Assembly (NCBI GenBank): GCA_964594055.1
Contig: CAZQKT010000001.1
Coordinates: forward strand, 11,577-75,576
Reading direction: 5' to 3'
Length of the DNA stretch: 64,000 bases
Source: an uncultured Spirochaetales bacterium
Lineage (GTDB): Bacteria; Spirochaetota; Spirochaetia; SPDA01; CAZJBZ01
Part shown: positions 45,823-62,284 of the stretch, piece by piece
Layout of the letters: every line of letters begins with the position of its first letter
How positions within the stretch are numbered: the first letter of the stretch is position 1
Program-made: the position numbers and the translations under genes
Notes under the pieces: model-generated
Databases searched by the model: none
What the model saw: the letters and a program-made list of their open reading frames with translations, nothing else
What the model was told of the DNA's origin: nothing

Positions 45823-47031
45823 TTATTCTTTCTTGTCAAATATATTTTTATTTTTTATCTGCTCCAGTACTCGTCCTTCCAGCGGAACAGCTTCGCTTAG
45901 GCCGCAGACATTTTTCAGAATATGGTCAATACCTCGAGGATAGTCCTCTTCGGCAAAAGCAGCGTCTGCCGGGAAAAGCCGGCCGTTTTCATCCGCGGCC
46001 CGAAAATCGAAGGCCGCGGTCACTGCCTCCGCTATCCTATCATAAGGCAGCCCGTGCTTCTCACAGAGAAGCATCGCCCCGACGAGACGGTCGTTTTTGT
46101 GCAGTTTCCGGTGCAGGTCCCGCCCGACCCTGAAAATCGTATCTCCGAGTGCTTTGTTTTGAAACCGGATGAGAAGATCGTCGATATGCTCCTGCAGTTC
46201 GTTCATAGGGAGGTCTTCCGGGTATTCCCGGTTTAATGCTACCGCGGCCTGCTCCATACAGGCCCGGGACTTCTCGTAGAGCCGATGCTCTTGAAGGGGT
46301 TCCCAGATATAGCGGTATGTATCGTCGTGAGCATACCCGAGATACGCCGTTGCGGCATGTCCTAAATTGTGTACAAACAGTTTACGGTCCACATAGGCTA
46401 CGATATTGTTTACCGGATGGATCCCTTTTACATCCGGTATTCCGGTCTTAAACCCGTGTTTATCGAGAATGAGCGAATTGTACTCCTCTGCAAACACCCA
46501 GAGCGGGTCTTCGCGCATGTCCTCTTCCCGCATAATCGGGACCATTTTCCCGATACTGGTTTCCACGAGCCCCAGCCGGTCGTCGAGCGGATAATCGGCC
46601 GGGAGTAGTTTCTGCAGTCCGTTTCGGATAAAAGCCGCACCGTCCCGGATATTTTCTGCAATTATCAAATCCAGTCTGTCGTCAGGTGTTTTTTCGCGGC
46701 GCAGTTTGAGCACTTCTGCAAAAAGCGGAAGGATATGGGGGAGAGCGGATTTACCCACCGAGGTCGAGACGAGGTCGGCCGAAGCAATTTCCTCGGCTAC
46801 CTGTTCTTTATCTTTTCCGTGGACGGCCCGTACCCGCTCTACGCGGAGTTCCTCATCCGGTACATCGTTGCGTTTAATGATGACCCTGTACCGTCTCTTT
46901 TGGTTGAGTGCTTCCACCAACGTGTCGTTGATGTCGATAAATACAACTTCCCAGCCGCTTCGTGAAAAAAGCTGTCCGATAAAAGACCGCCCGATGTTTC
47001 CCGCGCCGAAGTGCACCAGTTTTTTTGCCAT
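45823..47031 (-). CDS. Mannitol dehydrogenase family protein (mannitol-1-phosphate 5-dehydrogenase-like)
   Basis: 402 aa. The N-terminal KLVHFGAGNIGRSFIGQLF matches the MtlD start (ALHFGAGNIGRGFIG). Confidence 0.7.
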   Translation of the reverse strand: MAKKLVHFGAGNIGRSFIGQLFSRSGWEVVFIDINDTLVEALNQKRRYRVIIKRNDVPDEELRVERVRAVHGKDKEQVAEEIASADLVSTSVGKSALPHILPLFAEVLKLRREKTPDDRLDLIIAENIRDGAAFIRNGLQKLLPADYPLDDRLGLVETSIGKMVPIMREEDMREDPLWVFAEEYNSLILDKHGFKTGIPDVKGIHPVNNIVAYVDRKLFVHNLGHAATAYLGYAHDDTYRYIWEPLQEHRLYEKSRACMEQAAVALNREYPEDLPMNELQEHIDDLLIRFQNKALGDTIFRVGRDLHRKLHKNDRLVGAMLLCEKHGLPYDRIAEAVTAAFDFRAADENGRLFPADAAFAEEDYPRGIDHILKNVCGLSEAVPLEGRVLEQIKNKNIFDKKE

Positions 47032-47049: not shown

Positions 47050-47724
47050 TTATATGTACTGTTTATAATCGGAGACCAGGAGGTGAAGTGGGGACTCATC
47101 CTCTTCTATCCGTGGAAACCGACCCATCTCCTCGTAGAACCGGTTGTCCGCATTGTCGTCGTTGGTCATACTGACCTCTCCGACAAGAACCGTCCCTTTT
47201 CCCTTCTCGCCGTAGAACCGGTGATAGACCCGCTGTTCGAGACAGATGCTTTCTCCGGGGGTGAGTACGACCTTCTCCCCCGGCGCCACCTCTCTTTTTA
47301 TACCGTCAATCGATACAACTGTGGTCTTCCCGGAAAACTTGTCATGTTCATCGGCGCTGTAGAGTTCCAATACCAGATTGCCGCCGCCGCGGTTTATGAT
47401 ATCTTCCATCTTATACCAGTGAAAATGAAAGGGCGTCTCCTGTTCTTCTTCCGAGATCAGAACTTTTTCCGCATACGGTTTCTTGTCCTTTTTTATATTA
47501 CCGTTGCGAAGGGTAAACAGAAACAATCCCCGATGCAGATAATTTCCATGACCGAAATCGGTTATGTCCCAGCCTAACATGTTGTCGATTATTTCACTGC
47601 ACCGATCGTACTGTCCTTTCCATTTTTCAGAAGGCCAAAAAGCCCAGGGGGGGAGTTTGAAGTTCATCGTATCGAGGAACTGCTTGGCTTCAGTAATGAT
47701 TGCGTTGATCTCACTTCGTTTCAT
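47050..47724 (-). CDS. Cupin-fold D-lyxose/D-mannose ketol-isomerase-like protein
   Basis: 224 aa. The segment ETPFHFHWYKMEDIINRGGGNLVLELY matches the metal-binding core of D-lyxose isomerases (H-x-H...K-x-E-D-I-I-N-R-G-G-G). Confidence 0.5.
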   Translation of the reverse strand: MKRSEINAIITEAKQFLDTMNFKLPPWAFWPSEKWKGQYDRCSEIIDNMLGWDITDFGHGNYLHRGLFLFTLRNGNIKKDKKPYAEKVLISEEEQETPFHFHWYKMEDIINRGGGNLVLELYSADEHDKFSGKTTVVSIDGIKREVAPGEKVVLTPGESICLEQRVYHRFYGEKGKGTVLVGEVSMTNDDNADNRFYEEMGRFPRIEEDESPLHLLVSDYKQYI

Positions 47725-47873: not shown

Positions 47874-48800
47874 ATGGACCATACAATCGTTGCTTATGGA
47901 GAGGCCCTATGGGATATACTCCCTTCGGGGTCCGTACTGGGCGGCGCACCGCTTAATTTCGCCTATCGGGCCGATGCACTGGGAAACACTGTATTTATGG
48001 TCAGTAAATTGGGCGAAGATGAACTCGGGGAGAAGGCCCTCTCCCTGATTCAGGAACTCGGTATGGATACGACTTATATCCAGCGGGACAATGCCTACCC
48101 AACCGGTACGGTGAATGTCTTTTTCGATGAGAACAGGAATCCTGATTACACCATCAATGAAGGTGTCGCCTATGATCACATTACACGTACCGATGCCCTC
48201 ACTGAGCTGGCCGGGAAAGCGGATTGCCTCTGTTTCGGGTCACTGATTCAACGCGAAGAGGAGTCTCGTAGAACGCTCTATTCTCTGCTCGAAACGTTTG
48301 GGGGAACCTATAAACTCTTTGATATAAACGTACGGAAAAATTGCTATTCGAGGGAGACGATCGAAACCTCGCTCGAGTATGCCGATATCCTTAAATTAAA
48401 CGAAGAGGAGATAGCGTATCTCGACGAACTGTTCAATTTTGGAGAATCGACGATTGCAGGACGCAGCAGCCGAATCCTCACTGAGTTCGGACTCACATAC
48501 TGTCTGGTCACCATGGGTGATAAGGGCTCATTTGCAGTCTCGGATAAGGGTGAGAAGATCTATGGTCCCGGATATAAAGTAGAACTAATCGATCCGGTAG
48601 GTTCCGGTGATGCGTGTACTGCAGGATTTATTCATAAACTCCTCGTGGGAACGAGCTTAGAAGAAGCCGTAAGGTTCGGTAACGGGTATGGGGCCCTCGT
48701 TGCAGGACAAGAGGGAGCAACGAAACCGATTTCCAAACAGCAGATTGAAGAGTTTATCCGAACGAACCCCTACAGCGGATATTACGATGAGTTCAAATAG
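47874..48800 (+). CDS. PfkB-family carbohydrate kinase (fructokinase/ribokinase-like)
   Basis: 308 aa. N-terminal GEALWDILPSGSVLGGAPLNFAY and the C-terminal PfkB signature DPVGSGDACTAGFI. Confidence 0.8.
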   Translation: MDHTIVAYGEALWDILPSGSVLGGAPLNFAYRADALGNTVFMVSKLGEDELGEKALSLIQELGMDTTYIQRDNAYPTGTVNVFFDENRNPDYTINEGVAYDHITRTDALTELAGKADCLCFGSLIQREEESRRTLYSLLETFGGTYKLFDINVRKNCYSRETIETSLEYADILKLNEEEIAYLDELFNFGESTIAGRSSRILTEFGLTYCLVTMGDKGSFAVSDKGEKIYGPGYKVELIDPVGSGDACTAGFIHKLLVGTSLEEAVRFGNGYGALVAGQEGATKPISKQQIEEFIRTNPYSGYYDEFK

Positions 48801-48906: not shown

Positions 48907-49662
48907 GTGTCAATCAGTCTTTCCGAAAGAGAAAAAGCATTGCTCGAGCTTCTCTCCGAAGACAGCAATCTCTCCGTATCGGAGGTAAGCAAGCTGCTGA
49001 AGGTCTCGGCGGTGACCGCGAGAAACGACCTCGACAGTCTCGCCGAGAAAGGGTTTATTATCAGGACCCGAGGTGGGGCTTTTCCGGCCTTTCATCCGAG
49101 TATCATGGAACGACAAAAAAACATGATCGAGGCGAAGAACAGGATTTCAAAACGGGCCGCCTCGATCATCGAAGACGGGGACAAAATAATGATCGAGGCA
49201 GGAACGACCACTGCGTTTGTGGCGAAATTTCTGCTCGGGAAGCGTGACATCGATATTGTGACCAATTCGGCGCTCATTCTCCCTTACGCCCGGTCAAATC
49301 CTTCGATTCATCTGACCATGGTGGGGGGAGAGTTCCGTGCTTCTACAGAATCGTTTGTCGGTTCAATTACCCTGCGGGAACTCGAACAGTTCCATGTCCG
49401 GTATGCGTTCGTCGGAACGGACGGGTTTTCGATCGAAACGGGGTTGACGACCCATCTTGCGGAAGGGGCGGAAATTGTTCGGAAGATGTCGATGCAGGCT
49501 GAAAAAACCGTCGTTGTTGCTGATTCCTCGAAATACGGTAAATCCGGATTCGCCAGGGTCTTGCCGCTTGGTGATGCGGATGTGTTTATCAGCGATTCGG
49601 GAATGCAGCCGGAGGTGCGAAGCAGGCTCGAAGAAGAGGGAATTCATTTGATTCTTGTATGA
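48907..49662 (+). CDS. DeoR-family transcriptional regulator
   Basis: 251 aa. N-terminal HTH (LSVSEVSKLLKVSAVTARNDLDSLAEKGFIIRTRGG) and a DeoR C-terminal sugar-phosphate-binding domain. GTG start. Confidence 0.8.
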   Translation: MSISLSEREKALLELLSEDSNLSVSEVSKLLKVSAVTARNDLDSLAEKGFIIRTRGGAFPAFHPSIMERQKNMIEAKNRISKRAASIIEDGDKIMIEAGTTTAFVAKFLLGKRDIDIVTNSALILPYARSNPSIHLTMVGGEFRASTESFVGSITLRELEQFHVRYAFVGTDGFSIETGLTTHLAEGAEIVRKMSMQAEKTVVVADSSKYGKSGFARVLPLGDADVFISDSGMQPEVRSRLEEEGIHLILV

Positions 49663-49701: not shown

Positions 49702-51012
49702 ATGGCAAATCAAGTTTTAATGCCGAGACAGGGAAATACAGTAGAATCCTGTATTATTCTGGAATGGAAGAAAAACGAAGGAGATTCGATAAAAGAGGGA
49801 GAAGTCCTCTGCGAAGTGGAAACCGATAAAGCGACCTTTGAAGTCGAATCGGAAAACGGCGGAACGGTACTGAAGCGTTTCTTTGAAGAAGGTGACGATG
49901 TACCGGTACTCACACCTATTGCTGTAATCGGAGAGCCGGGGGAAGACATTTCCGGACTCGGTCCCGAGGGAGGCGAAGAGGAGAGCGAAAAAGAGACCGG
50001 AACTGCCGCAGGGAAACAGCCTGCGGCCGGTTCGGGTAAAGAGCCTGCAAGGACCCCGAGCGGAAAAATCGCTATATCTCCGCGGGCAAAACACCTTGCA
50101 GAGAGTAAAGGAATCGACTACAGGACCGTTGCCGGGACCGGCCCCGGAGGCCGGATTATCGAACGGGACATAAAATATGTATTAAGCGGTCAAGAGTCAC
50201 TTACTTCGGCTGCAGTCGAATCCATTATCGCCTCTGCTATGGAATCTGAAGGCAGAGAAAGTATACCGGCAGGCGGAGCGGAAACCGAAGCAGCAGTTTC
50301 GCGCGCACCGTTTCCCGGCAGATATGATGAGATTCCGGTCAAAGGTGTGCGGAAGGTAATTGCGGCAAAGATGGTGGAATCGCTTACTACTACTGCCCAG
50401 CTTACGCTCAACGGTTCAGCGGACGCTACCGGGCTTCTCGCCTACCGAAAAAAGTTGAAGAACAGCCCCAGGGAGTTCGGGGTGCAGGATGTTACGATCA
50501 ATGATATCGTTATGTTTGTGGTCTCGAGGATTCTTCCCCGGTTCCCGGACATGAATGCCCATTTCTTAGGGGACACAATACGGGAGTTCGACAATGTGCA
50601 CCTCGGATTTGCCGTAGATACGTTCAAAGGACTGATGGTCCCGGTTGTCCGCAACGCAAATCTGCTGAGCCTCAAAGAGATTGCAAAAGAAGCAAAACGG
50701 CTTTCGGCCCGGTGCTCGGAAAGCAAGATCGAAGCAGATGAGCTTACCGGCGGGACGTTTACCGTAACGAACTTAGGGGTGTTAGGGGTCGAGAGTTTTA
50801 CACCGGTCCTTAATCCCCCGGAAGTGGGGATATTAGGGGTCTGTTCCATTCAGTTGAAGCCGGTGATGCGGGATGAGGAAGTGCAGCATATTCCGCATAT
50901 CGGTCTCTCTCTTACCTTTAATCACCAGGGAACGGACGGAGCTCCGGCAGCAAGGTTTTTAAAACAGATCTGTTATGCACTAGAAAATATTGAACTTATT
51001 TTGGCGCAGTAG
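49702..51012 (+). CDS. 2-oxo acid dehydrogenase complex E2 (dihydrolipoamide acyltransferase)
   Basis: 436 aa. Lipoyl domain (EGEVLCEVETDKATFEVES), E3-binding-like segment (AISPRAKHLAESKGIDYRTV), and catalytic domain with the DHR-equivalent region (TFNHQGTDGAPAARFL). Confidence 0.8.
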   Translation: MANQVLMPRQGNTVESCIILEWKKNEGDSIKEGEVLCEVETDKATFEVESENGGTVLKRFFEEGDDVPVLTPIAVIGEPGEDISGLGPEGGEEESEKETGTAAGKQPAAGSGKEPARTPSGKIAISPRAKHLAESKGIDYRTVAGTGPGGRIIERDIKYVLSGQESLTSAAVESIIASAMESEGRESIPAGGAETEAAVSRAPFPGRYDEIPVKGVRKVIAAKMVESLTTTAQLTLNGSADATGLLAYRKKLKNSPREFGVQDVTINDIVMFVVSRILPRFPDMNAHFLGDTIREFDNVHLGFAVDTFKGLMVPVVRNANLLSLKEIAKEAKRLSARCSESKIEADELTGGTFTVTNLGVLGVESFTPVLNPPEVGILGVCSIQLKPVMRDEEVQHIPHIGLSLTFNHQGTDGAPAARFLKQICYALENIELILAQ

Positions 51013-51045
51013 CACGTTAGCACGTGCCGTAAAGAGGAGTAAATT

Positions 51046-53502
51046 ATGCCTAAATCATTAGTTGTGAATCCAAAAGATGTCAGAAAATCAACCAAGATAA
51101 AAATTAAAGATATCCCGGTCAATCAGTACAAACCTGATTTCGAGAAGGAGAAGAAAAAGTACGGAGCAGGGGGGCTGAAGACCATCTACTATCACATGCT
51201 TCTCATCCGGGAGTTCGAGACAATGCTCGATTCGATCAAGAAGCAGGGTAATTATCAGGGAATCGAATACAATCACCGCGGTCCGGCACATCTTTCTATG
51301 GGACAGGAATCAGCCGCTGTCGGCCAGTGTACCGTTTTAGACACGGATGATATGATTTTCGGTTCCCACAGAAGCCACGGAGAGATTCTCGCCAAGTGTT
51401 TCTCCGCGGTAGAGAAACTCGATGACGATACTCTGACCGAGATTATGAAAGAGTATATGGGCGGCGAAGCGCTCAAAATCGTAGAAAAAGAGCATAAAGG
51501 TGATGTAAAGGAGCTTGCCTATAATTTCGTCCTCTACGGGACCCTCGCTGAGATTTTTGCCCGGGCCCCCGGGTTTAACAGGGGATTAGGCGGTTCGATG
51601 CACGCTTTCTTTGCACCGTTCGGCAGCATGCCGAACAATGCCATTGTCGGCGGCTCCGGCGATATCTGTGTGGGAGCAGCACTTTTCAAACGGATCAATC
51701 GGAAACCCGGTATTGTTATCGGAAATATCGGTGATGCCTCCATGGGATGCGGCCCGGTATGGGAAGGGATGATGGTCGCGGCTATGGAACAGTATCGGAC
51801 CCTCTGGGACAAGGAGATCGGTGGTGCTCCGCCGATTATGTTCAACTTTTTCAACAATTTTTACGGCATGGGTGGGCAGACCGCAGGAGAAACCATGGGG
51901 TTCGGCGTACTTGCCCGGGTCGGGGCCGGGGTGAATCCGGACAACATGCATTCAGAGCGGGTAGACGGATACAATCCTTTGGCTGTTGCTGATGCAGTGG
52001 AGAGAAAGAAAAAAATCCTCCTTAAAGGAGAAGGACCCGTTCTCCTCGATACCGTCACCTACCGGCTCTCCGGACATTCACCTTCGGATGCTATGTCCTA
52101 CCGGACGAAAGACGAGCTTGCCCTGTGGGAACAGGGGGACGCTATCATCGAATATGGGAACTATCTGGAGAAAAACGGTGTGCTCTCGGGCAGTGAAAAG
52201 GACGAGTTGAAAGAGAAGGTAGTATCGAAGATTACCGAAACGATGAAACTTGCTATCGATCTCGATATATCTCCCCGAGTAGACGGCCCCTTTGTCGAAT
52301 CGGTCATGTTTTCCAACGAAAAGGTGGACAGGTTCGAGGACAGAGAACCGGAGGTCCTTCTCAAAAAAGAGGAAAACCCCCGGGTAAAATCACTCAAGAA
52401 CAAGGCCCGGTACGGACTCGATGAGAACGGTAAGCCTTTGGCGAAAAACAAAGTGTTTGCCCTCCGCGATGCATTGTTCGAAGCGATGCTCTACAGGTTT
52501 TACGAAGACCCGACCATGGTCGCCTACGGTGAAGAGAACCGGGACTGGGGAGGTGCATTTGCAGTCTACCGGGGGCTTACGGAATCGCTTCCCTATCACC
52601 GGCTTTTTAATTCATCCATCTCGGAAGGGGCCATTGCAGGCTCCGGGGCCGGATACGCAATGAGCGGTGGAAGGGCGGTAGTGGAGCTCATGTACTGCGA
52701 CTTTTTAGGACGTGCAGGGGATGAGATATTCAACCAGGTTTCCAAGTGGCAGAGTATGTCCGCCGGAGTGCTTACAATGCCTCTTACAGTCAGGGTAAGT
52801 GTGGGGAACAAATACGGGGCCCAACACTCTCAGGACTGGACAGCACTTGTCGCCCACATCCCCGGATTGAAGGCGATGTTTCCGGCCACCCCGTACGATG
52901 CTAAGGGAATGCTCAATCTGGCCCTGCGGGGAACAGACCCGGTGATCTTTTTCGAAAGCCAAAAAATCTACGATATGGGAGAACGGTTTGTACTCGACGG
53001 TGTGCCGGAAGGCTACTACGAAGTAGAGGAAGGGATGCCGGTGGTACGTCGCACCGGAGATCATATCACCATCGCCACCATCGGTGCTACACTCTATACC
53101 GCAGTAGAAGTAGTGGATGAATTAAAAGAGAAGTACGGACTGGATGCGGAACTGATCGACCTCCGGTTCATCAATCCGCTCAACTATGATGTGCTTGTCG
53201 AATCGGTCAAGAAGACCGGGAAATTGGTCCTCGCCTCCGATGCCTGCGAGAGAAACTCATTTCTTCACACCGTGGCTTCAAATGTGAACCAGATCGCTTT
53301 TGACTTTCTCGACGGACCGCCGGTTGTAGTAGGGTCCCGTAACTGGATAACCCCCGCAGCAGAGATGGAAACGCTTTTCTTTCCGCAGAAGGAATGGATC
53401 ATCGATACCATTCATGAGCGGGTCCTGCCGCTTCCGGGACATACTCCTACGACGGTGCAGACCGCGGATGAACTCTTGAGAAGAAACAGACTCGGGGTGT
53501 AA
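51046..53502 (+). CDS. Fused E1 alpha-beta subunit of a TPP-dependent 2-oxo acid (pyruvate/acetoin-type) dehydrogenase
   Basis: 818 aa. N-terminal alpha-like TPP-binding region ([10 protein letters not shown]...[11 protein letters not shown]...GDASMG), then a beta-like transketolase-Pyr / C-terminal domain ([27 protein letters not shown]...). Confidence 0.75.
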
Positions 53503-53506
53503 GAGC

Positions 53507-54835
53507 ATGGATGGTGATCAGAAGGCCCTGATAGGGCGGCTAAACGATCCTTCCAGGGAAAAACGGCTTGCCGCGGCGTACGAGGCCGGAAACGTTATCG
53601 CGGAAGGGGGTCTCACGGTAAAACAGACCGACGAGGTAAACAACCATGTGCACACCATCTATTCCTTCAGCCCCTACTCCCCGACCATGGCCGCTTTTAA
53701 GGCGTGGGAGGCCGGGCTGAAGGCGGTGGGGATTATGGACCACGATTCGGTTGCAGGCTGTGAAGAGTTGATCGAAGCCGGTAAACGTATAGGGATCGCC
53801 ACGACGGCTGGGTTCGAGCTTCGTGTCAATTTTTCCGGAACAAAACTGGAAGGAAGGCGCATTAACAGTCCCGATTCAAAAAATATTGCGTACATCGCCG
53901 TCCACGGTATACCGCACACCCGGTTTCGCGATGCAGAAGCGTTTCTCGAACCGCTCAATGAATACCGCAATGAGCGGAACCGGGTCCAGGTCCGAAAACT
54001 CAATGAAATTATTTCCTCATACGGAATGGAACCGATCGATTTTTACACCGAGGTGTATCCGCTCTCCCGGGCAAAAGAGGGGGGGAGTATTACCGAACGG
54101 CACATTCTTTTTGCCCTGGTAAAAAAGATCATTGCCCGCACCGGAAAAGGAAAAGCTGTAGTCAACTTCGTAGAGACGACTCTCAATGTTCCCATTCCGC
54201 AGACGATAAAAGGATATTTGAACGACAGTAAAAATCCCCACTATGAGTATGACCTGTTAGGAGTGCTTAAAAGCTCGTTTCTGCCTCTCATCTTCGTGCA
54301 GCCGGATTACGATGAATGTCCTTCGGTCTTATCGATCGTCGAATTTGTCAAACAGATCGGTGCCATCCCTGCTTACGCCTATCTAGGTGATGTCTGTGAA
54401 AGTCCTACCGGAGATAAAAAGGCCCAGAAGTTCGAAGATGACTTTCTCGACGAGCTTATCGATGAGATTACCCGAATCGGTTTTAAAGCGGTCACCTATA
54501 TGCCTCCCCGAAACAGTGCCCGACAGCTCGAACGGATCCAGCGGCTCTGCAAGGAACACGATCTTATGGAGATTAGCGGGGTGGACATCAACAGTTCGAG
54601 GCAGTCGTTTAACTGTCCTATCATCTTAGAACCCCGGTTTATCCATCTCGCCGATGCGACCTGGGCACTTATCGCCCATGAGAAAACTGCAACGGAATGG
54701 GGGGATAAATATGCCTTGTTCAGTGACGACAACCCCTTGAAAACTCTTCCGCTTAAGGAGAAAATTACGAAGTACAGCACTATCGGAAGAGAGCTTGATC
54801 CGAAAAATCCGGAAAAAATACCGGATTGGGAGTGA
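53507..54835 (+). CDS. PHP-domain metal-dependent phosphoesterase family protein
   Basis: 442 aa. The N-terminal NNHVHTIYSFSPYSP...GIMDHDSVAG matches PHP motif I/II (H-x-H...D-H). Confidence 0.5.
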   Translation: MDGDQKALIGRLNDPSREKRLAAAYEAGNVIAEGGLTVKQTDEVNNHVHTIYSFSPYSPTMAAFKAWEAGLKAVGIMDHDSVAGCEELIEAGKRIGIATTAGFELRVNFSGTKLEGRRINSPDSKNIAYIAVHGIPHTRFRDAEAFLEPLNEYRNERNRVQVRKLNEIISSYGMEPIDFYTEVYPLSRAKEGGSITERHILFALVKKIIARTGKGKAVVNFVETTLNVPIPQTIKGYLNDSKNPHYEYDLLGVLKSSFLPLIFVQPDYDECPSVLSIVEFVKQIGAIPAYAYLGDVCESPTGDKKAQKFEDDFLDELIDEITRIGFKAVTYMPPRNSARQLERIQRLCKEHDLMEISGVDINSSRQSFNCPIILEPRFIHLADATWALIAHEKTATEWGDKYALFSDDNPLKTLPLKEKITKYSTIGRELDPKNPEKIPDWE

Positions 54836-54837: not shown

Positions 54838-56118
54838 ATGTATCGGACACTAGCACCGCTTCTGCGGGGTCTCACGTATAACGGGCAATCCGGGAAAATC
54901 GTAACTTTCGAAGACGATGTCTCTAAGATAGGGTTTGTTAAAAAGCCGGAAAATAGTAATAAAGTGATAGCAGGGCTTTCTTTTTCCGGTAAGACTGAAA
55001 TCTGCGGCTGTACGCCGCTCTATATCGCGACCGGCGGCGGAGAAGAGAAAGGAGAGGGGAGCAGGGAACAGATCACTGCCGAGCTCATCGATAAAGTGGA
55101 ATCGTATAAGAAAGATTACCGGTGCGAACCGAAAATCGTTATTCTCGAAGACCGGGGTGTGTTTACACTGGGGGCAACCTACGATGATGCCCGGGCGGTC
55201 ATGGAGGGAATAACAAAACCGGTTTCTACATCTTTTCAGTCGGCTGACCCCGAGGGGCCGGCCACAGAGAAGGCGGAAAAGCGGAGCAGGGACGATGTGG
55301 TAAGAGGAAAGATATCTGTGGTGACCGGAGGCGCGCAAGGATTTGGTGAGGCCCTGGTGCGCAACCTTACTGCTGCGGGAAGTCTCGTGTTTATCGCTGA
55401 CATAAACCTCGAAGGGGCGGCATCTTTGGCCGACGAACTAAATGAAGCTGCGGGAGAAACTGTGGCCCTTCCTCTAGAAGTAAATGTTACCGACGAAGAA
55501 TCGGTACAAGCTATGATCGACGAGGTTGTCCGGAAAGCGGGGGGAATCGACCTCTACATAAGCAACGCCGGTGTTCTCAAGGCGGGCAGTGTAAAGGGGC
55601 TTTCCCTCAAAGATTTCCGGTTCGTAACCGATGTCAACTACATCGGCTATTTTTTAGGCGTAAAACATGCATCTCCGGTCATGGCACTTCAGAACAGGCC
55701 GAGCGGAGTTTACTTTACCGACATTATCCAGATCAATTCCAAGTCGGGACTCAAAGGGTCGAACAAAAACAGCGCCTACGCGGGGGCCAAGTTCGGAGGT
55801 ATCGGGCTTACCGAGAGTTTCGCCCTCGAGCTCATCGAAGACAACGTCAAAGTAAACTCGATCTGTCCGGGTAATTTTTTCGACGGTCCTCTCTGGTCGG
55901 ACCCGAAACGGGGTCTGTTCGTCCAGTATCTGAACACCGGGAAAGTCCCGGGTGCAAAATCGATCGAAGACGTAAAGAAATTTTACGAATCCCAAGTGCC
56001 CATGAGAAGGGGATGCAACGGAGACGACATTATCAAGACCGTCTACTACCTCGTCGAACAGAACTACGAGACAGGCCAGGCAGTTCCGGTAACCGGCGGA
56101 CAGATTATGATCAAATAG
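54838..56118 (+). CDS. Short-chain dehydrogenase/reductase (sorbitol-6-phosphate dehydrogenase-like) with ~150-aa N-terminal extension
   Basis: SDR core ISVVTGGAQGFGEALVRNL...NAGV...NSAYAGAKFGGIGLTESFALELIEDNVKVNSICPG resembles SrlD-type enzymes. The ORF opens at TTG 54826; the ATG at 54838 follows the PHP gene stop. Confidence 0.65.
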   Translation: MYRTLAPLLRGLTYNGQSGKIVTFEDDVSKIGFVKKPENSNKVIAGLSFSGKTEICGCTPLYIATGGGEEKGEGSREQITAELIDKVESYKKDYRCEPKIVILEDRGVFTLGATYDDARAVMEGITKPVSTSFQSADPEGPATEKAEKRSRDDVVRGKISVVTGGAQGFGEALVRNLTAAGSLVFIADINLEGAASLADELNEAAGETVALPLEVNVTDEESVQAMIDEVVRKAGGIDLYISNAGVLKAGSVKGLSLKDFRFVTDVNYIGYFLGVKHASPVMALQNRPSGVYFTDIIQINSKSGLKGSNKNSAYAGAKFGGIGLTESFALELIEDNVKVNSICPGNFFDGPLWSDPKRGLFVQYLNTGKVPGAKSIEDVKKFYESQVPMRRGCNGDDIIKTVYYLVEQNYETGQAVPVTGGQIMIK

Positions 56119-56127: not shown

Positions 56128-57390
56128 ATGAAAACGAAAGCAGTACGAATATACGGAAAGGAAGACCTCCGGCTCGAAGAGTTCGATCTTCCCGAACTAA
56201 AGGACGATGAGATACTCGCCCACATCATCTCGGACAGCATCTGCATGTCCTCTTACAAGGCGGCCAAGCAGGGAGGAGACCACAAGCGGGTTCCCGATGA
56301 TGTCGACCAAAATCCCACGATCATCGGCCATGAGTTCTGCGGAGAGCTCGTCGAGGTCGGAAAAAAATGGAAGCACAAGTTCAAACCGGGCCGGCGGTTT
56401 TCCATCCAGCCGGCCCTCAACTATAAAGGCTCTCTCGAGGCCCCCGGTTATTCGTTTCGGTATATCGGGGGGGATGCCACCTATGTGATCATACCCTCCC
56501 CGGTCATGGAAATGGACTGCCTCTTAGAGTACAGAGGCGATGCGTTCTATGCAGGCTCGCTTGCCGAGCCGATGTCCTGCATTGTGGGCACGTTCCACGC
56601 CATGTACCACACCAAACCGGGCCGCTACGAGCACGAGATGGGAATTGTCGAGGGGGGAGATATGGCAATCCTTGCCGGAGTTGGGCCGATGGGCTTAGGG
56701 GCGATCGACTACGCCCTGCACAATCCCCGCAAACCGGGCAGACTGATCGTCACCGACATCGACCAAAACAGGCTCGACCGTGCCAAGCGGATCTACACTG
56801 AAAAAGAGGCTGCGGATGTGGGAATTGAGCTTACCTATGTCAACACGAAAGATCTCGACGACCCGGTAGGTCATCTCCGCGGATACACCGATGAAAAGGG
56901 ATTTGATGATGTCTTTGTCTTTGCTCCGGTAAAGCCGGTGGTAGAACAGGGAGATGCCATTTTAGGGAGGAACGGGTGTCTCAACTTTTTTGCAGGTCCT
57001 ACCGATCAGAGTTTTTCGGCACTGCTCAACTTCTACAACGTGCACTACCTCTCCACCCATATCGTAGGGACGAGCGGAGGCAATACTGAGGACATGCGGG
57101 AAGCACTCCAAATGATGGGGGACGGGCTTATCAATCCTGCTACGATGATAACCCATGTAGGAGGGATGGACGCGGTGGTCGAGACGACCCTGCATCTGCC
57201 CGATATTCCCGGGGGGAAAAAGCTCATCTACACCAATATCGATATGGCGCTGACCGCAATTGCCGACTTCGAAAAGAAGGGGAAAGACGATCCTCTTTTT
57301 GCTGAACTTGCAAAACTGGTAGAAAAGAGTAACGGATTGTGGAATGTCGAAGCGGAGAAATATCTGCTCGAACATGCAAAAGGGATCTAG
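56128..57390 (+). CDS. Zinc-dependent medium-chain dehydrogenase (polyol dehydrogenase-like)
   Basis: 420 aa. Catalytic zinc ligands in ISDSICMSSYK...IIGHEFCGELVEVG, and a Rossmann motif AILAGVGPMGLGAIDYAL. Confidence 0.7.
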   Translation: MKTKAVRIYGKEDLRLEEFDLPELKDDEILAHIISDSICMSSYKAAKQGGDHKRVPDDVDQNPTIIGHEFCGELVEVGKKWKHKFKPGRRFSIQPALNYKGSLEAPGYSFRYIGGDATYVIIPSPVMEMDCLLEYRGDAFYAGSLAEPMSCIVGTFHAMYHTKPGRYEHEMGIVEGGDMAILAGVGPMGLGAIDYALHNPRKPGRLIVTDIDQNRLDRAKRIYTEKEAADVGIELTYVNTKDLDDPVGHLRGYTDEKGFDDVFVFAPVKPVVEQGDAILGRNGCLNFFAGPTDQSFSALLNFYNVHYLSTHIVGTSGGNTEDMREALQMMGDGLINPATMITHVGGMDAVVETTLHLPDIPGGKKLIYTNIDMALTAIADFEKKGKDDPLFAELAKLVEKSNGLWNVEAEKYLLEHAKGI

Positions 57391-57423: not shown

Positions 57424-58515
57424 ATGGCACAACTTTATGGAAAAACATGGACGAAAAAAGAACTGCTTTCTTACTGCGGTGATGTATCTCAGGCTGGAGG
57501 ATTAACACCGTTTTCCTACACAGACGGAAGAGCAAAGGGTGTCGACGGTGTGCGCTTCGATACCGGCAGCGGTTTTGCGTTTACTGTTTTACCGGGCAGA
57601 GGTATGGACATCCCCGAGGCGACCTACTGCGGTATTCCCTTAACTGTAAAATCAGCTAACGGAGTTACTGCTCCGGAGTTTTTCGAGCCGGAAGGATTGG
57701 GGTGGCTCCGCAGTTTTTTCGTAGGTCTTTTAACCACCTGCGGCCTGCGCAATGCAGGGCCTCCCCATGAGGACGAAGGGGAAGCTCTCGGCATCCACGG
57801 AAGGATATCCAATACTCCCGCTGAAAACATCTCTGTTGACCAGAAGTGGGAGGGAGACGAGTATGTGATGCAGGTAAAAGGGAGTCTTAAAGAGACGAAG
57901 TTTTTCGGAGAAAATCTCCTGCTTACCCGTACGATCGAATCTCAATTAGGGTGGAAAAGATTTGCTCTCCACGATGTAATCGAGAACCGCGGGTTCGAGT
58001 CCGAACCGCTTATGCTTCTCTATCATTTCAATATCGGATATCCGCTGTTGAGTCCACAGTCCCGGATCGTCGCACCTATCGAAAAGACTGAGCCGAGGGA
58101 CGCGGATGCAGAAAAAGACGACGGTATTAAAAACTGTCTCCGGTTTGATACCCCCTACGAACAGTACAACGAGAAGGTGTTTTTCCACACCCTGCACAAC
58201 GGGAAGGAGGGAAAGAGCTTTGTTGCGATCGTAAATGATGATATCGGAGAAGGGCAGCCGTTAGGACTTGTCATCAGATTTAACCGGAACCAGCTGCCCG
58301 ATCTTGTGGAGTGGAAGATGATGAAACGGGGGACCTACGTACTCGGTCTCGAACCGTGCAATACTGTACCACTCGGACGGGCGACAAACCGTGAAAAGGG
58401 TATATTACCGGAGATAGCAGGACAGGATTCGGTTTCGGTGGATATAGAAGTGGAAGTCCTCGATACGAAGGCAGATTTTGATAGAATCGAAAAAGAAGCC
58501 GCTTCGTTACAATAG
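57424..58515 (+). CDS. Aldose-1-epimerase-like (DUF4432-type) protein
   Basis: 363 aa, beta-rich and cytoplasmic. The N-terminal pattern GVDGVRFDTGSGFAFTVLPGRGMDI is typical of galactose-mutarotase-like superfamily members in sugar operons. Tentative. Confidence 0.35.
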   Translation: MAQLYGKTWTKKELLSYCGDVSQAGGLTPFSYTDGRAKGVDGVRFDTGSGFAFTVLPGRGMDIPEATYCGIPLTVKSANGVTAPEFFEPEGLGWLRSFFVGLLTTCGLRNAGPPHEDEGEALGIHGRISNTPAENISVDQKWEGDEYVMQVKGSLKETKFFGENLLLTRTIESQLGWKRFALHDVIENRGFESEPLMLLYHFNIGYPLLSPQSRIVAPIEKTEPRDADAEKDDGIKNCLRFDTPYEQYNEKVFFHTLHNGKEGKSFVAIVNDDIGEGQPLGLVIRFNRNQLPDLVEWKMMKRGTYVLGLEPCNTVPLGRATNREKGILPEIAGQDSVSVDIEVEVLDTKADFDRIEKEAASLQ

Positions 58516-58521: not shown

Positions 58522-59121
58522 ATGGAATATAGAGAAATCGGGAGTACCGGGCTTAAAGCATCCCGGATCGGATTAGGTGGATTTGCCTTTGCGATATGCA
58601 GGCAGAAGGAAGTAGAACGTTCGGTAGACCGGGCCTTCGAGCTGGGGATCAACTATTTTGATTCGGCCCGGCTCTACGGCACGGAGGGTAAAATTGGAAA
58701 AGCGCTTAAAACCGGACGGTTCGACCTCGCTTACGGCCGTTATAATCCCACGACACGGCAAAATGAGGATTCGGTCATCCCCCTTGCTGCAAAACTGAAG
58801 AAAGGGTTTATAACCATAAGTGCGCTTGCATGGGGGATCTACAGCGTCCCTGTCGAACATCACCCCTTTTTTGTCGGAGGCCGCCGTATGCCGGCTGCCG
58901 TAGCGTCGTTTCGGTATGTTCTCTCTAATCCGGATGTACATGTGGTCCTCGCCGGGGTAAGAAGCCCCGAAGAGCTCGACGAGCTCGTCGAGACGGAAGC
59001 ACTCCCTCCGCTCACTGAAGAGGAGAAGGCGCAAATCATCTACCACAGTGAACGGTTGGGAAGGGGTGCACCGAGTGCGGAATATGTGAAAAACGGTGTC
59101 CGTTCGATCTGCCCATCATAG
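58522..59121 (+). pseudogene. Aldo/keto-reductase-like ORF lacking the central catalytic barrel (internally deleted AKR)
   Basis: 199 aa. AKR N-terminus (MEYREIGSTGLKASRIGLGGFAF...GINYFDSARLYGTEGKIGKAL) joins directly to AKR C-terminal helices (AAVASFRYVLSNPDVHVVLAGVRSPEELDELV). About 110-130 residues, including the Lys/His of the catalytic tetrad, are missing relative to the two full-length AKRs in this window. Confidence 0.4.
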
Positions 59122-59188
59122 AGACCCTGAAAGAGGTCGATACAAAGGCGGAGGCGATACGGCATCCGACCTATCAGGACGAATACGA

Positions 59189-60913
59189 TTGAGCCGGATT
59201 GAGAAGCACACCGGAACATGGTGGAAGGCCACAACAGTATACCAAGTGTATCCCCGATCGTTTCAAGACAGCAACAGCGACGGAATCGGAGATATAAAAG
59301 GGATTATTTCCAGGCTCGATTACATCAAAGCTCTCGGGTTCGAGACCATCTGGTTCTCTCCGTTTTTCGCCGGTCCTCAGGGGGATTTCGGATACGATAT
59401 AAGTGATTACACCTCCATTGCTCCCGAATATGGAGATATAGAGAGTGCGCAGCGGCTCATCGATGAAATCCACTCCCGAGAGATGAAAATTATCCTCGAT
59501 ATGGTGATGAACCACACCAGTGAGAGGCACCCCTGGTTCCTCGAGTCGTGCGGTTCCCGGGAAAACCCCAAACGGGACTGGTACATCTGGCGGGACGGGA
59601 GGAAACCGGGCGGACAGGCCCCCCCGAACAACTGGAAGTCGGTTGTTGCCGGCAGGGGCTGGCACTATCACCGGGAAACGGACCAGTGGTACTGGGCGTC
59701 ATTCTTGCCGTTTCAGCCCGACCTCAACTATCGAAACCCCGCGGTCAAGCAGACGATGCTCGATATCGTACGGTTTTGGCTCCAAAAAGGGGCCGACGGG
59801 TTCCGTCTGGACATATTCGATGCTCTTTTCAAAGATGCTGAGTTTAGAAATAATCCTGTGGGATTGCCGATAAACAGGAATCCTGAAAACGAATCGCTTT
59901 TTTCCCAGAAACGGACCATGACTTGCCACCACCCCGACACTTTTGTCTTTGCCCGAGAGCTTAGGGAAGTCGTCGACGAATATAACGATCCTCCCCGGTT
60001 TCTAATAGGTGAGGTCTCCGGTACCTACGAGGTACTGCGGGAGTACTGCGGCGGGGAAGAACCGGAGGGGCTCCATGCTGTGTTCCTCTTTAAAGCACTT
60101 TCTGCTCAGATGAAAGCCGATGTATTTAGGACCCTGATAAAAGAGTTCGAAGAGCATTTTCCCGACCCTTTTGTGCCGACCTGGGTGTTTTCCAACCACG
60201 ATCGGGTAAGGCGGTTTTCCTTTTTAGGAGAGGACGCGGACGCGGCAAAACTCAATGCCGCTCTGCAGTTTACCGCCAGGGGTATCCCTTTTACCTATTA
60301 CGGAGAGGAGATCGGGATGGCTCAGTTGGAGATCCCCTTCGAAGAGGCCCTCGACCCGGTGGCCCGCCGTTTCTCCCGCCTGCCCCGGTTCCTCACCGCC
60401 CTGCTAAACAAGGTGACCCACGGAGCAGCCAACCGGGACGGGTGCAGGACCCCCATGCAGTGGAACGACAGTCCCCATGGAGGGTTCTGTACCGAAGCTG
60501 CCGACCCCTGGCTACCGGTCCATCCCAATTATCTATCCAAAAATGTCAACGCGGGGAAGTTAGGGCCCGATTCCCTCTACAACTGTTACCGCCGTTTTTT
60601 AAAGGCGCGGAAAGAAAACCCCGCACTGCAGACCGGAGAGCTCGAACTGATACCGGAAGAAAAGCTCCCTAAATCGGTACTCGGCTACAAGAGGTTTCTA
60701 CGAAATGATCCGGAACAGTTTTTTGTATTTCTCAATTTTTCCCGAGATTCACAAAACATTTCGTTTGCGCTTCAAAACCCGGAGCTAATTGTTTCAACTA
60801 GTGCGAACAAGAAAAGTTCGATTGTGAAAAAAGGGCAGGGTAGTGTCGCGTTTTCTCTCGGACCGTACGAAGGGGCTGTCATCCGGGAAGGCAACCGAGA
60901 AACGATATCCTAA
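59189..60913 (+). CDS. GH13 alpha-glucosidase (oligo-1,6-glucosidase / trehalose-6-P hydrolase-like)
   Basis: WWKATTVYQVYPRSFQDSNSDGIGDIKGI...GFETIWFSPFF...DMVMNHTS...GFRLD...YGEEIGM are canonical GH13 subfamily motifs. The ORF opens at GTG 59096; I chose TTG 59189 (AGGA 8 nt upstream) because homologues start just before WWK. Start uncertain. Confidence 0.75.
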   Translation: MSRIEKHTGTWWKATTVYQVYPRSFQDSNSDGIGDIKGIISRLDYIKALGFETIWFSPFFAGPQGDFGYDISDYTSIAPEYGDIESAQRLIDEIHSREMKIILDMVMNHTSERHPWFLESCGSRENPKRDWYIWRDGRKPGGQAPPNNWKSVVAGRGWHYHRETDQWYWASFLPFQPDLNYRNPAVKQTMLDIVRFWLQKGADGFRLDIFDALFKDAEFRNNPVGLPINRNPENESLFSQKRTMTCHHPDTFVFARELREVVDEYNDPPRFLIGEVSGTYEVLREYCGGEEPEGLHAVFLFKALSAQMKADVFRTLIKEFEEHFPDPFVPTWVFSNHDRVRRFSFLGEDADAAKLNAALQFTARGIPFTYYGEEIGMAQLEIPFEEALDPVARRFSRLPRFLTALLNKVTHGAANRDGCRTPMQWNDSPHGGFCTEAADPWLPVHPNYLSKNVNAGKLGPDSLYNCYRRFLKARKENPALQTGELELIPEEKLPKSVLGYKRFLRNDPEQFFVFLNFSRDSQNISFALQNPELIVSTSANKKSSIVKKGQGSVAFSLGPYEGAVIREGNRETIS

Positions 60914-62218: not shown

Positions 62219-62246
62219 TTGACACCGCATCAGACCATGGTACAAT
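62219..62246 (+). promoter_or_regulatory. Consensus sigma70 promoter TTGACA-N16-TACAAT driving rhaM/URO-D-like genes
   Basis: TTGACA at 62219-62224 and TACAAT at 62241-62246 read directly, ~38 nt upstream of the rhaM ATG, which has a GGGGGA RBS. Confidence 0.5.
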
Positions 62247-62284
62247 TGATTATTATTAATTTTTGGAATCAAGGGGGATGGAAC

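Follow-up and report, generated by a model that had tools for sequence, protein, structure and literature searches.

The 64,000-nucleotide stretch of DNA analysed here (referred to as the window), part of contig CAZQKT010000001.1 of an uncultured Spirochaetales bacterium, encodes a lipoyl-bearing dihydrolipoyl acyltransferase (E2) followed by a thiamine diphosphate (ThDP)-dependent component in which E1 alpha and E1 beta are fused. The complex formed by these proteins is not a housekeeping pyruvate dehydrogenase (PDH), and it is firmly supported that it belongs to a sugar-phosphate-regulated catabolic operon tied to the use of L-fucose and L-rhamnose in anaerobes. Its parts can be assigned to superfamilies that are already known, and the complex as such falls into the E1 alpha-beta/E2/E3 class; judged from sequence by curated thresholds or defining features, neither the complex nor the short-chain dehydrogenase/reductase (SDR) encoded with it qualifies as a member of the PDH, acetoin dehydrogenase (Aco), SrlD or RhaEW families.

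As to what the complex cleaves, we tentatively propose, with a probability of about 40%, that the E1 substrate is an oxidised 6-deoxyketose phosphate, which would undergo an acetoin-like cleavage, so that the methyl-bearing end of the 6-deoxyhexose would become acetyl-CoA instead of leaving as 1,2-propanediol. The acyl product is probably acetyl-CoA, because the E2 is PDH-like and the E1 Aco-like. All functional assignments made here rest on homology and gene context.

The Operon in the Window

The E2 and E1 genes are part of a run of genes on the same strand, with intergenic gaps of -26 to 106 nt (-10 to 106 nt from PfkB to ZnADH):

47874..48800, + strand: PfkB-family sugar kinase, 308 aa (Pfam PfkB 1e-40), first gene of the run
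48907..49662, + strand: DeoR-family regulator, 251 aa (HTH_DeoR 4e-14, DeoRC 9e-47), heading the E2-E1 operon
49702..51012, + strand: E2 dihydrolipoyl acyltransferase, 436 aa (Pfam lipoyl, E3/E1-binding and catalytic domains)
51046..53502, + strand: fused E1 alpha-beta ThDP component, 818 aa (Pfam domains and motifs)
53507..54835, + strand: PHP-domain protein, 442 aa (Pfam PHP, 28 bits)
54838..56118, + strand: SDR with an N-terminal extension of ~155 aa (adh_short 1e-41, residues 162-350)
56128..57390, + strand: Zn-dependent medium-chain dehydrogenase (ZnADH), 420 aa (ADH_N, ADH_zinc_N)
57424..58515, + strand: DUF4432 protein, 363 aa (PF14486 1e-96)
58522..59121, + strand: aldo-keto reductase (AKR) remnant, 199-aa open reading frame (ORF) (Pfam matches residues 15-64 only)
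59096..60913, + strand: GH13 alpha-glucosidase-type hydrolase (PF00128 6e-120), last gene of the run

This arrangement bears out the original prediction, made from the sequence alone, that an E2 and an 818-aa fused E1 lie between a PfkB kinase and DeoR regulator on one side and PHP, SDR and Zn-dehydrogenase genes on the other; an ORF check placed the E2 and E1 ORFs at exactly the same coordinates, and the domains of the neighbouring genes were confirmed. The two ORFs are not due to chance, since they are long, have strong domain matches and have thousands of homologues. The DeoR regulator probably senses a sugar phosphate. The PfkB kinase reached no NCBIfam equivalog cut-off, and a scan for promoters and terminators gave signals near background and was uninformative on the limits of the operon.

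A Core Operon Shared by Anaerobes of Several Phyla

We compared 80 orthologous loci (designated by L numbers) from species-representative genomes, many of them metagenome-assembled genomes (MAGs). Flanks of up to 10 kb were covered, and a gene described as absent is absent from this neighborhood. The loci reflect both common ancestry and horizontal transfer and hence are not independent of each other. Their E1 proteins are 67-96% identical, and they span Spirochaetota, Atribacterota, KSB3 (Moduliflexus/Vecturithrix), Calditrichia, Melioribacteraceae, Anaerolineae and Caldilineaceae; the operon is conserved in at least six phyla of anaerobes. The closest relatives of the window are uncultured Spirochaetales MAGs, and its sequence is identical to that of a JGI metagenome contig.

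By tblastn and ORF clustering, the conserved core of these loci is DeoR-E2-(E3)-E1-PHP-SDR-ZnADH. In the 32 well-flanked loci, which have at least 5 kb on either side of E1, E2 is present in 31, DeoR in 26, SDR in 18, and PHP and ZnADH in 17 each; over the whole set, E2 is present in 67 of the 80 loci and DeoR lies immediately 5' of E2 in 46. PHP and SDR travel as a pair, with PHP directly 5' of SDR in nearly every locus that has PHP. ZnADH is the dehydrogenase that most often adjoins E1 where PHP and SDR are absent or elsewhere, and it is found directly 3' of E1 in L040, L048, L050, L062, L064, L067 and L071, even with PHP-SDR absent or on the other strand. Its identity to the ZnADH of the window is 62-80% in the spirochaete and Atribacterota loci and 45-54% in L040, L048 and L050.

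Several variants of this organization were observed. The PHP-SDR genes of L037, L038, L054, L062, L067 and L071 are on the strand opposite to E1, accompanied by a 326-aa DHH-motif protein without Pfam match (e.g., L038:5044-11224), while L068 resembles this Spirochaetaceae arrangement without PHP-SDR. Divergent from the PHP-SDR genes of the L038 type there is one gene of the glucokinase family and another that distantly resembles UDP-glucose pyrophosphorylase, to which a NUDIX gene is added in L010; these neighbors may point to a nucleotide-sugar connection. In the versions from Calditrichia and Melioribacteraceae (L040:13774-14886, L040:3547-4656 and L048:14720-16102), the core is DeoR-MtlD-like-E2-E3-E1-ZnADH without PHP or SDR. 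In L040, a transaldolase gene directly follows ZnADH and an APH/MtnK-type kinase is encoded nearby; L048 encodes a FucI-superfamily isomerase whose best NCBIfam match is the sulfoquinovose isomerase SftI, at 88 bits, far under the cut-off.

Linkage to L-Fucose and L-Rhamnose Genes

At least one deoxyhexose gene, counted as FucI, FucU, a FucI-linked FGGY kinase, RhaM, RhaA or a RhaE-type aldolase, was found at a distance of no more than 10 kb in 20 of the 80 loci; among the 32 well-flanked loci, 11 have such a gene. This is far above expectation for single-copy genes in multi-megabase genomes. FucI is present in 11 loci, FucU in six, RhaM in three and RhaA in two, and a divergent FGGY kinase in seven, located either between SDR and ZnADH or beside FucI. 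RhaA occurs with a RhaE-type aldolase in L013. The same type of aldolase is encoded in L015 and L016 beside a rhamnulokinase that is a near-equivalog of TIGR02627 (485 bits against a cut-off of 528); this 268-aa class II aldolase has its top matches to the RhaE part of RhaEW models.

The deoxyhexose genes stand beside the core in typical orders, i.e., FucI-FucU-DeoR-E2-E3-E1 in L030, L037 and L054, FucU-FucI-E2-E1-PHP-SDR-ZnADH-PfkB in the Atribacterota loci L063 and L051, and RhaM-RhaE-RhaB-E2-E1-PHP-SDR-ZnADH in the Atribacterota loci L015 and L016. LacI genes adjoin FucI in L014, L030, L031 and L037. The window's own 6-deoxyhexose link is RhaM, the only match obtained there by tblastn; the searches of the window for FucI, FucK, RhaA and aldolases found none. 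The original prediction had described the genomic context as a polyol and sugar catabolic island, which has to be revised, as the signal across genomes comes from L-fucose and L-rhamnose genes (20 of the 80 loci) and not from polyols in general.

The Fused E1 and Its Partners

The E1 is a single polypeptide with matches to Pfam E1_dh (3.3e-38), Transket_pyr (1.2e-27) and Transketolase_C (3.1e-22). It contains GDAS at residue 229 followed by NN at 270-271, a YRxxGHSxSD loop at 339, the beta-domain motif at 494 and GAQHSQ at 591, and residues E496 and H594 are invariant in an alignment of 15 sequences with Aco, Bkd and Pdh references; as judged from these motifs and those of E2 below, the catalytic motifs of the complex are intact. 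The alignment also shows K65, K215, R291, R556 and K589 to be specific to the clade, which makes them candidates for a phosphate pocket in the active-site funnel. Members of the family are 812-835 aa long, nearly all of them 818 aa, and the 120 best database matches among its thousands of homologues are at least 72% identical to the window E1.

Identity to E1 pairs of the Aco, Bkd and Pdh types is ~27-31%. These reference pairs are all plasmid-borne and come from three aco-type operons (two of which encode butanediol dehydrogenase and one AcoC), one bkd operon and two clusters annotated as 'pdhA', which are atypical in being linked to an acyl carrier protein (ACP). In blastp with the full E1, the Aco-type pairs scored 247-296 bits, Bkd 208 and the ACP-linked PdhA-type 199-212; in phmmer with the alpha half, the Aco-type scored 74-126 bits, the ACP-linked PdhA-type 72, PDH solved structures 53-65 and Bkd or branched-chain 2-oxoacid dehydrogenase (BCKDH) 38-49. 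The alpha half is remote from human PDH E1 alpha (~1e-17) and from BCKDH (1e-12), and the beta half matches E1 beta of PDH and of BCKDH about equally well (~1e-50). By these scores, the E1 appears to lie a little nearer to the acetoin-dehydrogenase type than to the E1 of PDH or BCKDH. The comparison with Aco, Pdh and Bkd that the original prediction had suggested as a check gives a divided picture, with pairwise scores highest to the Aco-type but a neighbour-joining tree that puts the family outside Aco.

The E2 contains Biotin_lipoyl (3e-17), E3_binding (7e-13) and 2-oxoacid_dh (4.7e-67) domains, a lipoylation motif ETDKAT at residue 40, and its active-site His in a variant motif, NHQGTDG (residue 407), instead of DHRxxDG. 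Its top NCBIfam match is the PDH-type TIGR01349, at 283.6 bits against a cut-off of 445, which does not make it an equivalog. No dihydrolipoamide dehydrogenase (E3) was detected in the window by tblastn with an E3 from an orthologous operon, the best hit having E = 0.002 over 97 aa inside the mannitol-dehydrogenase-family gene, and in this the original prediction was right. The lack of E3 is, however, not a general trait, since 40 of the 80 operons carry between E2 and E1 a gene of ~450 codons for a dihydrolipoyl-dehydrogenase-type flavoprotein (Pyr_redox_2 1.7e-73, Pyr_redox_dim 7e-26), which makes this an ordinary family of three-component systems. The in-operon E3 was lost or never present in the window lineage (with L002 and L003), in Atribacterota and in some others. 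The complex must have an E3, which in the window lineage would have to be borrowed, and the E3-binding domain is retained in the window E2.

One explanation would be a housekeeping PDH lying in a sugar island by chance, and the architecture of E1, E2 and the peripheral subunit-binding domain is that of a PDH-type complex. PDHs with a heterotetrameric E1 (PdhA/B/C/D) share with the window the E1 and E2 domain sets, the YRxxGHSxSD loop and, probably, acetyl-CoA as product, and some loci contain DeoR-E2-(E3)-E1 without other catabolic genes. Unlike these PDHs, the window complex has a fused E1, lies in a catabolic, sugar-regulated context without E3, and misses every PDH equivalog cut-off widely: besides the E2, the E1 scored 157.5 bits against 393.85 for TIGR03182, 215.6 against 321 for PRK09212 and 212.2 against 454 for PRK11892. 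DeoR heads the operon in 46 of the 80 loci, there is conserved co-transcription with PHP, SDR and ZnADH, and the linkage to fucose and rhamnose genes recurs. Further, the entire operon occurs twice in one Treponemataceae MAG, on separate contigs (L044 and L045, with E1 70-71% identical to that of the window). We thus consider a housekeeping role extremely improbable, in agreement with the original prediction, since the complex is fixed in a DeoR-headed sugar operon over at least six phyla and reaches no PDH equivalog.

The SDR, PHP and ZnADH Proteins

The core of the SDR is nearest to sorbitol-6-phosphate dehydrogenase (SrlD), with 5o3z as the closest solved structure (2.5e-45) and 37-39% identity to plasmid-encoded SrlD, yet it remains under the cut-off of PRK12384 (240.4 vs. 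307 bits) as well as that of TIGR02632 (143 vs. 567.75 bits). Over a longer range, SDR residues 9-426 can be aligned, at 25-27% identity, with RhaEW proteins encoded on plasmids, of which they cover the C-terminal two thirds; a single alignment to RhaEW covers residues 11-425 (27% identity, E 4e-31), and the N-terminal extension alone gives E 5e-4. This extension is 100-165 aa long and poorly conserved. Both proteins share the motifs PLLRGL and PxIVxxxxxGxF (PKIVILExxGxF), and the start of the SDR corresponds to residue 247 of the 682-aa Frondihabitans RhaEW, in its middle region, with the aldolase domain absent. By these alignments, the SDR appears to be built like RhaW and to lack the aldolase part. 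The N-terminal extension was also considered as a degenerate class II aldolase domain, which was rejected as it matches the middle region of RhaEW instead.

In the RhaEW system, RhaE is an L-rhamnulose-1-phosphate aldolase and RhaW an NAD-dependent L-lactaldehyde dehydrogenase, both shown in vitro, and DeoR-type RhaR regulators of rha genes have been described (PMC3870299). The operons studied here are likewise linked to rha genes and DeoR-type regulators, the window SDR matches the middle and RhaW parts of the fusion, and the RhaE part is a separate neighboring gene in L015 and L016. They differ in that the SDR gene of the window lacks the aldolase domain, is only 25-27% identical, and is directly preceded by the PHP gene, which holds the position that the RhaE aldolase domain occupies in RhaEW fusions. 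The ORF caller placed the SDR start at TTG 54826, within the end of the PHP gene. A start at ATG 54838, two bases past the PHP stop, is favored by the JGI gene call and by the conserved N-terminus MYRTLAPLLRGL, and suggests translational coupling.

The PHP-domain protein belongs to an uncharacterised family of ~440 aa. Its AlphaFold model (pLDDT 92.4) shows the PHP (beta/alpha)7 fold, with a barrel like that of TrpH/YciV and a large helical insertion, and Foldseek matched it to 3o0f (3.5e-11), 2yb1 (3.7e-9) and RNase AM (2e-8), each with a probability of 1.00. Conserved motifs are HxH (47, 49), DHD (78-80) and GxE with E104. The Asp of the canonical SDG motif is replaced by an invariant Phe54 (profile alignment to 3e0f), and an invariant D360-I-N362 stands at the expected place of D-x-H, as mapped by motif reading rather than structural superposition. 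The third metal site of PHP phosphatases is probably missing, and the protein may bind two metals instead of three and be a non-phosphatase.

The best PDB match of ZnADH is sorbitol dehydrogenase 3qe3 (3e-12), and its Cys39, His68 and Glu69 align with the catalytic Zn ligands of the sheep and whitefly enzymes (3qe3, 1e3j). It reached no NCBIfam equivalog; the best match was IolM (76 bits against 450), and the others listed were Tdh and other alcohol dehydrogenases. A role as RhaZ-type lactaldehyde reductase was rejected, as RhaZ is an iron-dependent alcohol dehydrogenase.

With these components, the operon resembles the Aco system (AcoA/AcoB/AcoC/AcoL), which also encodes a ThDP-dependent E1, a lipoyl E2 and an E3 together with one medium-chain dehydrogenase/reductase (MDR) and one SDR, and the cleavage proposed here, of a CH3-CO-CHOH-R ketol into acetyl-lipoamide and an aldehyde, would be alike. 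One could therefore read it as a plain acetoin/2,3-butanediol operon, in which ZnADH is butanediol dehydrogenase, the SDR acetoin reductase and the complex AcoABC(L); the enzyme classes equal those of aco operons and the E1 is slightly nearer to the Aco-type. Such a reading is very improbable in our assessment. Neither the MDR nor the SDR of the window reaches a butanediol-dehydrogenase or acetoin-reductase cut-off: the SDR is RhaW/SrlD-like, scoring 240 bits to SrlD and 143 to RhaW against 111-126 to acetoin reductase, and the listed matches of ZnADH lack butanediol dehydrogenase. Unlike in the Aco system, the regulator is of the DeoR type instead of AcoR/sigma-54, and PHP, sugar kinases and isomerases, and fucose and rhamnose genes are attached to the operon. 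The E1 alpha and beta are fused, contain ~150 additional residues and, in the neighbour-joining tree, stand apart from Aco on a long branch of their own; the operon is carried by anaerobes with a fermentative metabolism, from Spirochaetota, Atribacterota and further phyla.

A Proposed Route from 6-Deoxyketose Phosphate to Acetyl-CoA

In the pathway that we propose, the sugar would be isomerised and phosphorylated to a 6-deoxy-ketose 1-phosphate by an isomerase (FucI, RhaA or a lyxose-type enzyme) and a kinase (FGGY or PfkB), these entry enzymes varying between lineages. The sorbitol/butanediol-dehydrogenase-like ZnADH would oxidise C5, at the CH3-CHOH end, to a methyl ketone, giving an acetoin-like CH3-CO-CHOH-R, which the E1 alpha-beta would split between C4 and C5 via hydroxyethyl-ThDP, placing the acetyl group onto lipoyl-E2. 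E2 would then yield acetyl-CoA and E3 NADH. The leftover phosphorylated 2-hydroxy-aldehyde (C1-C4) would be oxidised by the RhaW/SrlD-like SDR to a 3-oxo acid phosphate, which would lose CO2 to become dihydroxyacetone phosphate (DHAP), via the atypical PHP protein or, where present, the RhaE-type class II aldolase-fold protein. The net reaction would be deoxyketose-1-phosphate + CoA + 3 NAD+ -> acetyl-CoA + CO2 + DHAP + 3 NADH. For the last step there is a chemical analogy only, namely the class II aldolase-fold enzyme OtnC, which reportedly (Zhang and colleagues, PNAS, 2016) decarboxylates 3-oxo-tetronate 4-phosphate to DHAP and CO2. More speculatively than the cleavage itself, these steps could together constitute an aldolase-independent and propanediol-free pathway for L-fucose and L-rhamnose in Spirochaetota, Atribacterota, KSB3 and others, running through ZnADH, cleavage by the fused E1, and SDR and PHP to DHAP and CO2.

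This route gives every conserved gene a role. Phosphorylated intermediates are indicated by the kinases, the DeoR regulator and the phosphoesterase-fold protein. The set of E1, E2, E3, SDR and MDR mirrors that of bona fide aco operons on Acinetobacter and Enterococcus plasmids, and the pairings of ZnADH with E1 and of PHP with SDR are consistent with the proposed order of reactions. L040 and L048, where the SDR is missing, have instead an MtlD-like enzyme with matching regiochemistry, and the transaldolase directly 3' of ZnADH in L040 also fits. The same holds for the likeness of the SDR core to SrlD, a sugar-phosphate dehydrogenase, and for the relatives in rhizobia described below. With regard to aldolases, jackhmmer searches with the RhaE-type aldolases found none in most loci; in the loci with FucI, FucU or the FucI-linked FGGY kinase, neither these searches nor an approximate E. 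coli FucA query detected a class II aldolase, FucA-like ones included, within the flanks of up to 10 kb. The absence of FucA is weak evidence, because of the length of these flanks and because FucK is often missing too. The keto-sugar or acetoin-like cleavage of the original prediction thus stays a live and leading explanation, given the Aco-nearer E1 and the aco-like make-up, but the RhaW-like SDR has opened the way to a rival based on pyruvate.

A number of points weigh against the proposed route. The preference of E1 for the Aco-type over the PDH-type is modest, and in the neighbour-joining tree, made with few references and without bootstrap, the family and its Rhizobiaceae relatives form a long separate branch outside the Aco group, leaving the sister group unresolved. 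In about one third of the well-flanked loci, DeoR-E2-(E3)-E1 stands alone, with the dehydrogenases not nearby. FucK, like FucA, is missing from many FucI loci. Since the conserved core is fed by many entry isomerases and kinases, a common small intermediate would be the easier explanation, and both the RhaW architecture of the SDR and the RhaE-type aldolase and rhamnulokinase directly 5' of E2 in L015 and L016 fit an ordinary aldolase cleavage to lactaldehyde. We know of no precedent for a decarboxylase or aldolase role of a PHP protein. In full-text searches of the literature, we found no published work on the operon, on a fused E1 of this clade in sugar catabolism or on the biochemistry of the family, and none on the truncated RhaW-type SDR, the atypical PHP protein, a polyol-type MDR under DeoR, or their attachment to fucose and rhamnose genes.

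These points lead to an alternative that is serious, if on balance unlikely. An aldolase (RhaE, RhaD or FucA, often encoded elsewhere) would produce DHAP and L-lactaldehyde, the latter would be converted through pyruvate to acetyl-CoA, and E1/E2/E3 would be a pathway-specific PDH. It has two variants: the SDR could make L-lactate and a second dehydrogenase pyruvate, or ZnADH could make methylglyoxal and the SDR then pyruvate. The net stoichiometry equals that of the proposed route. The fate of the carbons would be shared as well, with C5-C6 ending up in acetyl, C4 in CO2 and C1-C3 in DHAP, and under either route no 1,2-propanediol but additional acetate, CO2 and H2 would be expected. The alignment of SDR residues 9-426 with the RhaW part and middle region of RhaEW speaks for such a pathway, as RhaW has been proven to oxidise L-lactaldehyde and lactate dehydrogenases are included in some rha regulons (PMC3870299). 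So do the canonical E2 with its top scores to PDH-type E2 models, the split RhaE, rhamnulokinase and RhaM directly 5' of E2 in L015 and L016, and RhaA with a RhaE-type aldolase in L013; lactaldehyde is common to fucose and rhamnose breakdown, in keeping with a conserved core with varied entry enzymes, and the loci with only DeoR-E2-(E3)-E1 fit as well. However, the PDH equivalogs are not reached (E1 alpha 157 vs. 394, E1 beta 216 vs. 321, and E2 284 vs. 445 bits), the alpha half of E1 is further from PDH than from the Aco-type, most loci lack an aldolase, and the PHP protein is left without a role. Homologs in Rhizobiaceae that are 52% identical and have AcoC-like partners are unlikely to be pyruvate enzymes. 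An E1 unlike that of PDH would have to use pyruvate, and a sorbitol-dehydrogenase-type MDR would have to act on lactate or lactaldehyde. A lactate dehydrogenase among such MDRs would to our knowledge be unprecedented, and anaerobes of this kind normally use pyruvate:ferredoxin oxidoreductase.

Alternatively, the complex may act on a C3 carbonyl compound, cleaving methylglyoxal hydrate (formed by ZnADH) to acetyl-lipoamide and formate, or converting lactaldehyde to lactyl-CoA. ZnADH adjoins E1 without SDR in L040, L048 and L050, the module is linked to fucose and rhamnose genes alike, and methylglyoxal hydrate is, by chemical reasoning only, formally an acetoin-like alpha-hydroxy ketone, compatible with the Aco-like affinities of E1. 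Against this, free methylglyoxal is toxic, the SDR and PHP proteins are unexplained, formate-handling genes were not seen in the loci, and we know of no precedent for the reaction. We consider it improbable, and continue to favor an oxidised 6-deoxyketose phosphate as substrate.

Related Clusters on Plasmids

Outside the family, the closest relatives of the window E1 are fused E1 proteins encoded on plasmids of Rhizobiaceae, which are 51-52% identical over 97% of the length. Their clusters, on A. tumefaciens pAt15955 (L082:15001-18484) and R. johnstonii 3841 pRL8 (L083:14001-18484), are uncharacterised and occur in genetically tractable organisms. Behind E1, these clusters encode a split version of AcoC, consisting of a free lipoyl protein and an alpha/beta hydrolase, along with a carbohydrate kinase and a SorC regulator, and nearby are sugar ATP-binding cassette (ABC) transporters, RbsD/FucU, a sugar-phosphate isomerase, lipA and a mannitol-dehydrogenase-family gene, without an aldolase. 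Unlike the window, these clusters have no canonical E2, PHP, RhaW-like SDR or ZnADH; their regulators are SorC or RpiR and their hosts are aerobic. A housekeeping PDH can be presumed to exist in aerobic Rhizobiaceae. On pRL8, the cluster for homoserine catabolism was rejected as the context of the rhizobial homolog, being adjacent but separate, and the pRL8 transcriptome paper does not mention the fused-E1 locus.

Other plasmids contain further arrangements. In Nitratireductor sp. OM-1, plasmid pOM-1 (L090:4944-10953) encodes a non-fused Aco-like E1 alpha/E1 beta and an alpha/beta-hydrolase-type E2, flanked by genes for an ABC transporter of the ribose type, a regulator of the SorC type, an FGGY kinase and an SDR, the last a generic FabG-like enzyme; this is another sugar-linked acetoin-dehydrogenase-like system. 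Leisingera (L087:2307-7384) and Ralstonia (L091:3187-8380) have clusters of an acetate-CoA ligase, a 'pdhA' E1 (fused in Leisingera), an E2 and an ACP, an arrangement reminiscent less of a housekeeping PDH than of E1/E2 systems in which a carrier protein is loaded with a two-carbon unit. A two-carbon-unit role is said to have been proposed, by Peng and colleagues in 2012, for E1/E2-like proteins of quinocarcin and naphthyridinomycin biosynthesis.

These relatives bear on a further alternative, in which an ordinary ketose phosphate would undergo transketolase-like cleavage, its two-carbon unit being oxidised on lipoamide to give glycolyl-CoA, with release of an aldose phosphate such as erythrose-4-phosphate. 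The several kinds of kinases and isomerases attached to the core, the transaldolase after ZnADH in L040, the isomerase and kinase without dehydrogenase in the Rhizobiaceae clusters, and the existence of plasmid E1/E2 clusters with an ACP all accord with such a reaction. It would leave the specific 6-deoxyhexose link and the two dehydrogenases unexplained, no enzyme for the use of glycolyl-CoA was seen, and the E2 is of the normal CoA-transferring type with an E3-binding domain, so that we find it hardly more probable than the acetoin operon considered above. Cleavage of an oxidised 6-deoxyketose phosphate to acetyl-CoA remains the reading that we prefer.

Implications

Mucins, plant pectins and algal polysaccharides have fucose and rhamnose among their major sugars, and in textbook anaerobic catabolism half of the deoxyhexose carbon is lost as 1,2-propanediol or sent through microcompartments. 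If the proposed route is correct, it would change the predicted fermentation products, ATP yields and H2/NADH balances of abundant uncultured anaerobes in sediments, digesters and guts. The system is widespread and mis-annotated: the large family of ~818-aa 'alpha-ketoacid dehydrogenase subunit alpha/beta' proteins, now mis-annotated as 2-oxoisovalerate dehydrogenase, would gain a function, as would the uncharacterised PHP family, with a new non-phosphatase role of the PHP fold. Cleavage of a keto-sugar phosphate by E1 would extend the known chemistry of lipoyl-dependent complexes, since no thiamine/lipoyl dehydrogenase complex is known to have been shown to use a sugar phosphate as a catabolic substrate. 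The question can be addressed in carriers that are in culture, i.e., Gracilinema caldarium and Marispirochaeta, as well as Rhizobium johnstonii 3841 and Agrobacterium tumefaciens in the sister clade.

Flanking and Accessory Genes of the Window

The run of genes containing the operon is flanked on both sides by the following genes:

45823..47031, - strand: mannitol-1-phosphate-5-dehydrogenase-like protein (MtlD-like), 402 aa (Pfam Mannitol_dh 8e-36, Mannitol_dh_C 2e-22), divergent from the operon
47050..47724, - strand: D-lyxose/D-mannose isomerase (cupin), 224 aa (Pfam Lyx_isomer 4e-98; NCBIfam NF051472 279 bits, cut-off 350)
60976..62022, - strand: LacI-family regulator (LacI, Peripla_BP_3 domains)
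62219..62608, + strand: L-rhamnose mutarotase RhaM (PF05336 1e-35, 122 bits; tblastn with L013 RhaM), likely start near 62285
62639..63808, + strand: URO-D-family protein (PF01208 2e-21), directly after RhaM

The original prediction had all of these sugar genes except the last following the operon, which holds for GH13, LacI and RhaM but not for the D-lyxose isomerase and the mannitol-dehydrogenase-family gene, which lie upstream on the minus strand. The MtlD-like protein scored 240 bits to the NCBIfam MtlD models (cut-off 356) and is also encoded in L002 and L003, whereas the MtlD-like gene within the operon of L040 and L048 is a distant one, and the lyxose isomerase is a candidate for the sugar-entry isomerase of the window lineage. 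Accessories specific to this lineage are its PfkB kinase, the lyxose isomerase, the MtlD-like gene, DUF4432 and GH13. Among the related loci, tblastn found DUF4432 in L003 only, and GH13 is also present in L003; PfkB kinases are attached to the core also in L002, L003, L063, L055 and L034.

The AKR ORF between DUF4432 and GH13 is probably a decayed gene. Inspection of its translation (58522-59121) showed an N-terminal part (~64 aa) and a C-terminal part, with the middle of the barrel missing; intact AKR genes are present elsewhere in the window at 575-1546 (-) and 15069-16007 (+). A URO-D-family gene, as found after RhaM in the window, also precedes FucU-FucI in the Atribacterota loci L063 (4943-6049) and L051 (1-723), and our guess for these proteins beside deoxy-sugar mutarotases is the demethylation of O-methylated deoxy-sugars.

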